From Patescibacteria group bacterium (GTDB lineage Bacteria > Patescibacteriota > Patescibacteriia > Patescibacteriales > UBA12465): a stretch of 64,000 bases of DNA. The notes below the pieces were generated by a model that searched no databases, was not told where the DNA came from, and was given only the letters and a program-made list of their open reading frames with translations. The position numbers and the translations under genes are program-made. Positions within the stretch are counted from its first letter, which is position 1. Each line of letters opens with the position of its first letter. The stretch is from the NCBI GenBank assembly GCA_041665845.1, contig JBAYIC010000005.1:6047-70046 (forward strand), written 5' to 3'. This document shows positions 31,340 to 31,826 of the stretch, in pieces.

Positions 31340-31790
31340 ACAACGCTCAAGCGCGCGCTTATTAGTTTATCTCCCTTTTTGGCTGATCCTGACCGGAGGA
31401 ACTTTCATCCTATCACGGACATCCGGGTGAGATAAATTAATAAGTTCGCGTTTCAATCCTGAAAAGGAATTTAATTCGAACTGGCGGACCCAGTCAAGGT
31501 CGAACCTCGAAAGAGGAGGTCTGTCCCTTACAAACTTACTTATGTTCAATTTAGCTTAAAACCAAATCTCTTATATTCTTATAAGGTAAATCGGTTAAGC
31601 TTTTCTCCAGCCTGTGGCAACACGCGCTAGGCTGGCAGAACTTTATTCATAGAGACCTGTCGGTCTTCGCCTTAAGCCTTAACGGGTTGGCGGAGCGGGA
31701 TTCCGACTGATTTATCGAAAAAGTTTAACAGGGAAATGAAATAAAAGTTAAATTGCGCAAATCATTATTTTTAAATCGTTCCGACTACTA
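31340..31790. other. GC-elevated, hairpin-rich non-coding region (candidate structured RNA or long 5' leader of the S-layer-like gene)
   Basis: No ORF with coding character. Two GAAA-capped hairpins (ATCCT-GAAA-AGGAA at 31456-31469; CCTC-GAAA-GAGG at 31505-31516), each nested in an outer stem (GTTCG/CGAAC; GGAC/GTCC). Further stems: CCAGCCT/AGGCTGG at 31608-31636 and AGACC/GGTCT at 31653-31666. Confidence 0.5.
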
Positions 31791-31810
31791 TTGTCCGGAC
31801 GTTTGAAAAT
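31788..31810 (-). repeat. degenerate copy of the dispersed repeat, reverse orientation
   Basis: The reverse complement ATTTTCAAACGTCCGGACAATAG matches copy d at 17 of 24 positions with one 1-nt indel. It ends 17 nt upstream of the S-layer-like ATG. Confidence 0.4.
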
Positions 31811-31826
31811 AATATTAACATTAATT

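Follow-up and report, generated by a model that had tools for sequence, protein, structure and literature searches.

The eps-associated RNA (EAR) of the Bacillales is an intra-operon processive antitermination element of about 120 nucleotides (nt), and the OLE, GOLLD, ROOL, HEARO and raiA RNAs occur as separate transcripts or in association with mobile elements or varied genes. To our knowledge, bacterial structured RNAs of several hundred nt are rare, and each of them so far has opened new biology. Here we describe a structured RNA found in a 64,000-nt stretch of DNA from a Patescibacteria group bacterium (contig JBAYIC010000005.1; the whole stretch is termed the window), located between the gene of a 277-residue (aa) membrane protein and that of a 1,272-aa secreted protein. 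With a probability of roughly 0.55, we read it as a large, multi-domain, cis-acting regulatory 5′ leader of the switch type, belonging to the mRNA of the ~1,200-aa secreted surface protein. The leaders of S-layer or other major surface-protein genes, such as Lactobacillus slpA, share with this RNA a long leader before a large secreted-protein gene and hairpins near an exposed ribosome binding region, and serve mRNA stabilization and efficient translation (PMC10221546). However, the slpA-type leaders are far shorter, limited to individual species and without sequence conservation across a class, whereas the present RNA, of about 500 nt, combines a bistable helix with six conserved helical elements and near-invariant junctions. 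In addition, this RNA starts directly behind the preceding gene, no separate promoter could be found for it, and the protein downstream of it is no more than a putative S-layer protein (termed “S-layer-like”).

Riboswitches, T-box elements and attenuators also lie upstream of their gene on the same strand and combine a covarying, sensor-like fold with mutually exclusive helices; by contrast, this RNA lacks an Rfam match, is three to five times the typical aptamer size, precedes a non-metabolic gene and has no terminator or start-masking helix that could be linked to the switch. The OLE, GOLLD, ROOL, HEARO and raiA RNAs resemble it in the size of several hundred nt, the many conserved helices, the restriction to a lineage and the long intergenic signature rich in guanine and cytosine (GC), whereas none of their Rfam models matches in the window, and the present RNA appears to be fused to a single mRNA and to extend into its coding sequence. 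EAR is likewise a conserved RNA between operon genes for cell-surface material, upstream of a long coding sequence; compared to it, this RNA, without an Rfam match, is about four times larger and is predicted to frame the start codon. Overall, its kind, a cis-acting structured leader, is known, whereas its size, its reach into the coding sequence, its depth of conservation and its lineage are new.

The gap free of open reading frames (ORFs) comprises 491 nt (31336-31826), between the TAA (31333-31335) that ends the 277-aa ORF and the ATG at 31827, which is the start of the downstream gene; the gene caller had taken TTG 31791 instead. It is the second-longest gap in the window, following that at 9429-9945, and has a GC content of 40.7% compared to 34.6% for the window, a value attained by 5.7% of equal-sized windows, with the core (31349-31716) reaching 44.6%. 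The + strand folds at -158.5 kcal/mol, compared to -113.3 ± 6.1 kcal/mol for dinucleotide shuffles (z = -7.4), and the - strand gives z = -4.2. On the minus strand, a 60-aa ORF (31367-31549) has no Pfam or NCBIfam family match and is not conserved, as the indels among relatives are not multiples of three. The initial annotation, made from the letters of this DNA, had described the spacer as one of the two longest in the window and richer in G+C than its flanks, had dismissed the minus-strand ORF, and had pointed to two GAAA-capped hairpins; these measurements bear it out, and both hairpins, UCCU-GAAA-AGGA (31457-31468) and CCUC-GAAA-GAGG (31505-31516), are present. The element itself is predicted to span ~515 nt on the + strand (31349-31864), reaching ~30-40 nt past the spacer into the coding sequence, compared to the 487 nt delimited in the initial annotation.

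The RNA is previously uncatalogued, absent from Rfam 15 and from the literature searched. At gathering thresholds, the Rfam 15 covariance models yielded a single passing match in the whole window, a tRNA at 5857-5927. A permissive scan (E ≤ 10) of positions 31200-31950 returned noise, with Phe_leader on top at 22.5 bits against a threshold of 55, and the RNase P models gave zero matches in this segment even at that E-value. ARAGORN reports no transfer-messenger RNA (tmRNA). Ten related loci compared against Rfam contain tRNAs only, and two related spacers (L076 and L003; L numbers are our labels for the related loci) gave nothing credible. The hand comparison in the initial annotation had found no fitting known family, and the Rfam comparison that it proposed, which returned no credible match to the spacer or its relatives, agrees with it, as does ARAGORN. 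Moreover, no comparable element is described in the literature searched on structured RNAs of the candidate phyla radiation (CPR), Patescibacteria, Falkowbacteria or Parcubacteria.

The RNA is tied physically and evolutionarily to one surface-protein gene in Falkowbacteria-like Patescibacteria. The 1,272-aa protein has 1,191 homologues, essentially all in Patescibacteria, which were aligned and from which 80 genome loci were fetched. A nucleotide search with the spacer matched in about 35 of the 80 loci, and the number of positives rose to about 60 with a profile made from 24 spacers and, later, with a covariance model. These matches always lie on the coding strand and directly 5′ of the homologous large gene, with E-values down to 1e-124 for the spacer RNA, despite proteins only about 50% identical. 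In the reverse direction, metagenome contigs were scanned for a 23-nt RNA motif alone, with at least 119 matches; among the matches listed, about 114 are genuine, four are chance hits in high-GC DNA, and one is a distantly related variant that precedes the gene of a signal-peptide protein. The genuine matches with enough flanking DNA share one gene order: ECF (extracytoplasmic function) sigma factor, ~270-aa membrane protein, RNA, large secreted protein. No other genomic context was seen among the about 114 listed metagenome matches, the about 60 loci or the 64-kb window, and the viral contigs scanned with the motif contain no copy. The covariance model R1 finds a single copy per locus, and a single copy in the window, which scores 124 bits with this model of the P4 domain. 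Across the loci, the spacer is mostly 400-650 nt long (median 490).

Where genes have been inserted upstream (a HicA/HicB-like pair, a methyltransferase-like ORF or an extra 250-aa ORF), the RNA remains beside the large gene. By eye, a HicA/HicB-type toxin-antitoxin pair stands between the membrane-protein gene and the RNA in L057 (about 4982-5460) and L154 (about 6525-7000), and a methyltransferase-looking ORF in L016 (about 4719-5530). The mean identity to the window is 0.81 for P4, higher than that of the coding sequence (0.66) and of the upstream gene (0.61); selection on P4 thus appears to be stronger than on the neighboring proteins. The locus L002 encodes the protein closest to that of the window (65% identity); its spacer (5600-6000) keeps a P2-like AAGGUCGA module, while P1, P4 and P5 are gone. 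Because this spacer is reduced, the RNA content does not follow protein similarity, the element having disappeared or been replaced in some lineages. The AAGGTCGA block of P2 is likewise retained even in distant relatives without P1 and P5.

The consensus architecture is serial, with independent domains and unpaired 5′ and 3′ ends (Table 1). Conserved G·U pairs in P1, P4 and P5 would be A·C mismatches on the other strand, which places the RNA on the + strand. The initial annotation had named conservation and covariation as what to look for, and covariation was found throughout P1-P5. P4 is the most conserved part: its blocks AUCGGUUAAGCUUUUCUCCAG and GGAGCGGGAUUCCGACUGAUUUA are nearly invariant, 27 positions are invariant across 92 sequences, and in these sequences 43 pairs are 94.2% paired, compared to 30-48% in slid controls, with compensatory change at 22 pairs; none of 500 shuffles reached the observed values. 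The shortest natural version of P4, of 64-74 nt, retains the closing helix, one hairpin and the mini-hairpin. The further GC stems of the initial annotation (31608-31636 and 31653-31666) are local pairings that the comparison disfavors, as the corresponding bases of the relatives pair otherwise within this domain; the corresponding CCAGCC/GGCUGG hairpin is 90% paired, and its covariation is no better than that of shuffles.

The two arms of P1, UUAUUAGUUUAUCUC and GAGAUAAAUUAAUAA, are almost invariant and contain conserved G·U pairs. In 68 sequences, 22 pairs of P1 are 96.7% paired (27-43% in slid controls) and compensatory change occurs at 10 pairs, values reached by 0 of 500 shuffles. For its apical region, which aligns poorly, RNAalifold returned no structure. 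In P2, RNAalifold pairs show compensatory changes; the internal loop AAGGUCGA is asymmetric and near-invariant, and the inner hairpin often has a GNRA loop. A column-pair covariation scan for more long-range pairs was dominated by clade-specific transitions and gave P3 as the sole new helix. Inside P3 lie a hairpin and a linker, both variable, with P4 between them. The best duplex of P3 has a mean of 7.86 base pairs (bp) for matched strands, compared to 5.88 ± 0.14 bp for swapped partners (maximum 6.33 in 500 permutations), and 54 distinct helix variants occur in 73 sequences.

The 3′ part of the element surrounds the translation start. Both stems of P5 show compensatory changes, with 105 G·U against 37 A·C, and P5 ends 14 nt ahead of the ATG. 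Its loop UACUAUU is conserved, and the distance from this loop to the ATG is fixed at 41-45 nt in 58 of 62 relatives. On the other side of the start codon, the 72 relatives listed have AAA UUA CGC as codons 3-5 and (G/A)GC GUA AUG as codons 11-13 in essentially all cases; TTA and CGC occupy codons 4 and 5 in each listed relative whose start is correctly placed, and the synonymous sites next to these blocks vary freely. In the codon use here, CGC makes up 20% of the Arg codons and GTA 23% of the Val codons. This freezing of synonymous sites points to a hairpin, P6, within codons 3-13, whose sequence is invariant, so that no covariation signal is possible. The start codon is accordingly predicted to sit in a short, open, A/U-rich window framed by the hairpins P5 and P6. 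The RNA structure overlaps the coding region of the signal peptide (31827-31868), where the synonymous sites are frozen in about 70 relatives.

Table 1. Structural elements of the RNA and adjacent genes (window coordinates)
Feature	Positions	Strand	Description
P1	31349-31453	+	Rod-like hairpin of ~105 nt; arms A (31349-31373) and B (31429-31453); inverted repeat I1
P1 apical stems and loops	31374-31428	+	Read by eye from the alignment
Helix B:C	31443-31448 with 31477-31482	+	Alternative to the P1 base; encloses the variable GAAA hairpin 31457-31468
P2 domain	31483-31526	+	Helix GGCGGACC/GGUCUGUCC; internal loop AAGGUCGA (31496-31503); inner GAAA hairpin (31505-31516)
P3	31547-31557 with 31745-31755	+	Long-range helix; inverted repeat I4; encloses about 190 nt
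P4 (domain III)	31586-31715	+	Closing helix GUAAAUCGGUU/GACUGAUUUAU; long branched arm; mini-hairpin CGG-GAUU-CCG
P5	31764-31813	+	Outer stem 31764-31775/31802-31813; inner stem 31778-31785/31793-31800; loop UACUAUU (31786-31792)
Translation start window	31814-31834	+	Predicted unpaired, A/U-rich; ATG 31827; consensus UUAAcnAUUAnUUAUGAA; no Shine-Dalgarno motif
P6	31835-31864	+	Indicated hairpin within the coding sequence; AUUACGC (31835-31841) with GCGUAAU (31858-31864); codons 3-5 and 11-13
ECF-type sigma factor gene	29849-30469	+	Pfam Sigma70_r2/r4, NCBIfam ECF; first gene of the conserved cluster
277-aa membrane protein gene	30502-31335	+	One predicted transmembrane segment; conserved upstream of the RNA
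1,272-aa secreted protein gene	31827-35645	+	Signal peptide; gene tied to the RNA

Part of arm B can alternatively pair with a downstream segment C. The helix B:C has seven pairs, is 95.2% paired and shows compensatory change at all seven, which 0 of 500 shuffles match. It shares five alignment columns with P1 (152-154, 157 and 158), and column 152 covaries both with column 23 (U-A 53, C-G 11) and with column 237 (A-U 52, G-C 11). A:B and B:C are thus predicted to be mutually exclusive helices, both of them conserved. Since both are kept by compensatory change, a hallmark of RNAs with two conformations, the RNA would have two states and act as a switch. The GAAA hairpin enclosed by B:C belongs to an insert that varies and is missing from many relatives; in many relatives, only four bases lie between B and C, making a tight local hairpin that abuts P2.

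A small upstream hairpin, Z, that pairs with the 5′ base of P1 is enriched (5.49 bp compared to 4.87 ± 0.12 bp). We rejected it as a general terminator-type feature, as it is terminator-like in only 22 of 73 relatives. At 31342-31359 and equivalent positions, about 30% of the relatives have a GC-rich hairpin after the upstream stop codon, the 3′ arm of which is the 5′ base of P1; followed by the U-rich start of P1, it resembles an intrinsic terminator. In the window, this hairpin is weak on the + strand, and the scan flags a terminator-like site on the minus strand.

Several lines of evidence bear on how the RNA is transcribed and how the large gene is translated. The distance from the end of P4 to the ATG is 38-42 nt in seven relatives and contains nothing but an A-rich stretch and, as ribosome binding site, AAGGAA; this leaves no room for a promoter, from which we infer, on sequence grounds, that the RNA is part of that mRNA. 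Among the relatives, no promoter of the housekeeping type was seen to recur at a constant position within the element or immediately ahead of it, and the promoter scan in the window gave a site count not above that of shuffles. The sigma factor gene in relatives is preceded by a housekeeping-type promoter, TTGCTT-N17-TAGAAT. A terminator-like site on the + strand was not found between the RNA and the large gene, and a weak terminator-like site lies inside P4. Attenuation coupled to ribosomes stopping at the upstream gene was rejected, as the distance from the stop codon to P1 ranges from -1 to 42 nt and the upstream gene differs in some relatives. Only three of 54 long ORFs in the window have a Shine-Dalgarno-like motif, and the start regions are A/U-rich; the absence of such a motif at ATG 31827 is therefore normal for an organism that rarely uses it. 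AAGGAA is used in related lineages with the short-linker form of the RNA.

The RNA lies on the same strand as the large gene, directly 5′ of it, and has a structure with compensatory changes, as expected of a cis-acting leader, with co-transcription as the inferred part. What would mark an independent noncoding RNA, namely a promoter and a terminator of its own, is lacking, and every genuine copy has the same neighbor. The initial annotation had left the choice between a stabilizing or regulatory 5′ leader and an independent RNA on either strand; the linkage to the gene and the constraint on its coding sequence favor the leader, whereas the independent RNA loses ground without a promoter or terminator at a conserved position.

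In the switch-type leader that we favor, the RNA would share a transcript with the upstream cluster genes, or its transcription would begin at an unrecognized start in or just after them, and it would act in cis as a riboregulator. A signal, which may be a small ligand, a protein or a co-transcriptional event, would shift the balance between A:B and B:C; the global fold would then change and alter the openness of the start window between P5 and P6 and/or the stability of the message, and the amount of surface protein made would thereby be tuned. Recognition or tertiary contacts probably take place at the near-invariant P4 loops and junctions and at the AAGGUCGA loop of P2. A bolder proposal, which we hold only tentatively and consider doubtful, is that the RNA is the first member of a new class of ~0.5-kb sensor RNAs specific to CPR/Patescibacteria, a leader resembling a riboswitch or forming a ribonucleoprotein, in which the P4 junction and the P2 loop bind a small molecule or protein, the P1 switch flips, and the output of the main surface protein is set; the neighboring pair of ECF sigma factor and membrane protein might be its partner.

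Several observations weigh against the regulatory leader. No terminator, anti-terminator or start-masking helix that could be linked to A:B or B:C was convincing. In the subclade of the window, the apical loop of P4 and the start-codon region share 11-12 complementary bases, UUUAUUCAUA/UAUGAAUAAA; masking of the start codon by this loop was nevertheless rejected, as the family-wide duplex length is weakly positive and the energy not significant (41/500). A pseudoknot between the P5 loop and codons 12-14 was also rejected, the complement being present in 57 of 73 sequences and the variants lacking compensation. P3 shows no excess of G·U pairs (14 G·U against 23 A·C). A length of ~500 nt is far beyond the known size of riboswitch aptamers, and it would be unusual for an abundant surface protein to rely on read-through from a regulatory operon.

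Two other explanations leave the RNA as an RNA and change what it does. It may be a passive element of stability or processing, in which the leader protects an abundant mRNA from 5′-end-dependent decay, or P1 serves as an RNase III-type site that separates the message from the upstream cistrons, and nothing is sensed. The precedent comes from the Lactobacillaceae, in which S-layer mRNAs are long-lived and stem-loops in the 5′ untranslated region stabilize the transcript and expose the ribosome binding site (PMC10221546); the 22 pairs of P1, the open start window between P5 and P6, and a position between cistrons that probably need very different levels of expression would all fit. However, stabilizing hairpins need no near-invariant loops and junctions throughout a whole class, whereas P4 has its invariant positions and exceeds the proteins in conservation, and two exclusive covarying helices argue for a switch rather than a static protector; we regard the passive explanation as rather unlikely. 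Improbable, in our view, is an independent, trans-acting large noncoding RNA gene in the manner of OLE, GOLLD, ROOL or raiA, with a fixed position beside the surface-protein gene. Its size, its complexity and a conservation above that of the neighboring genes would suit such an RNA, no cis-regulatory class of this size is known, and the weak terminator-like site inside P4 would also be in its favor. The missing promoter and terminator speak against it, as do the single genomic context, the short distance from P4 to the ATG in several relatives, and the structure and constraint that continue past P5 and the start window to P6, inside the coding sequence.

The conservation might also act at the level of DNA, as a control region with promoters (including a target of the ECF sigma factor), operators or an invertible phase-variation switch. 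An ECF-promoter-like motif, GAAC-N18-GTT, occurs upstream of P5 in 19-36 of 72 relatives, a 187-bp segment is flanked by inverted repeats, and the lack of G·U bias in P3 would be in keeping with DNA. Yet the conservation of GAAC is explained by P3, because GAAYUGAA pairs with UUCARUUC 190 nt upstream in 54 compensatory variants; the base before GTT (the C of CGT) is not conserved; and ahead of the sigma factor gene the motif is found in 2 of 99 cases, compared to 1.7 expected. An internal ECF promoter with its start in the P5 loop was therefore rejected: the GAAC block is the 3′ strand of P3, and the P5 stems covary, so that both arms of P5 must be transcribed. The conserved G·U pairs in P1, P4 and P5 would make no sense for DNA repeats, and no P4 inverted with respect to the gene occurs among the genuine listed metagenome matches or the genome loci. 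Altogether, this explanation is largely refuted and very improbable. A highly divergent member of a known family (RNase P, tmRNA, signal recognition particle RNA, 6S, T-box or a known riboswitch) has a negligible chance. Atypical RNAs are frequent in CPR bacteria, and the length is similar to that of RNase P RNA or tmRNA, whereas Rfam gave nothing at gathering thresholds and noise at E ≤ 10. A divergent tmRNA was rejected on the negative ARAGORN result, the serial domains and the unpaired ends, and RNase P RNA on the lack of any model match, the serial architecture and the tie to one protein gene, which is unexpected for a housekeeping RNA.

The RNA is abundant in groundwater and sediment Patescibacteria, which are uncultivable and have few recognizable regulators, and it opens a concrete way to study how CPR bacteria regulate their major surface protein. 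It is also a well-defined subject for structural work and may represent a new fold that senses a ligand or a protein. If the sensor proposal holds, organisms credited with a minimal regulatory capacity would possess such a regulatory RNA; if the RNA is a stabilizing leader and nothing more, it would still surpass in complexity all those described and would be useful for marking the gene cluster.

The ECF sigma factor gene lies upstream of the RNA in nearly all related loci with enough flanking DNA. The 277-aa membrane protein has no Pfam or NCBIfam match, and we guess from its position alone that it is anti-sigma-like. The 1,272-aa protein also belongs to no Pfam or NCBIfam family. Its N-terminal ~200 residues are very conserved, and their model, with a predicted local distance difference test score (pLDDT) of about 90, consists of repeated small β/α modules that bear a weak likeness to the periplasmic repeats of EccB (E-value of 1e-3, template modeling score (TM) of 0.19).

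Besides the spacer studied here, this compact genome has further long ORF-free gaps at 9429-9945 (517 nt), 44357-44809, 22788-23240 and 29421-29866, with zero Rfam matches at gathering thresholds; the first of these is the second of the two longest spacers to which the initial annotation alludes. Many public records of the locus (L003-L081) are titled “uncultured Gammaproteobacteria”, “Halanaerobium sp.” or “Bacillota bacterium” despite a Patescibacteria-type locus, which suggests mislabeled or contaminated bins. Tandem repeats stand directly 5′ of the RNA in some relatives, as two copies of a ~43-nt unit in L004 (about 5400-5500) and as (AATCTTG)n in L034 (about 3060-3110). Directly 3′ of the surface-protein gene, at 35799-37400 in the window and at 15298-17417 in L001, are genes resembling RhuM, Bro-N and LexA/S24, a combination often seen in remnants of prophages or mobile elements.

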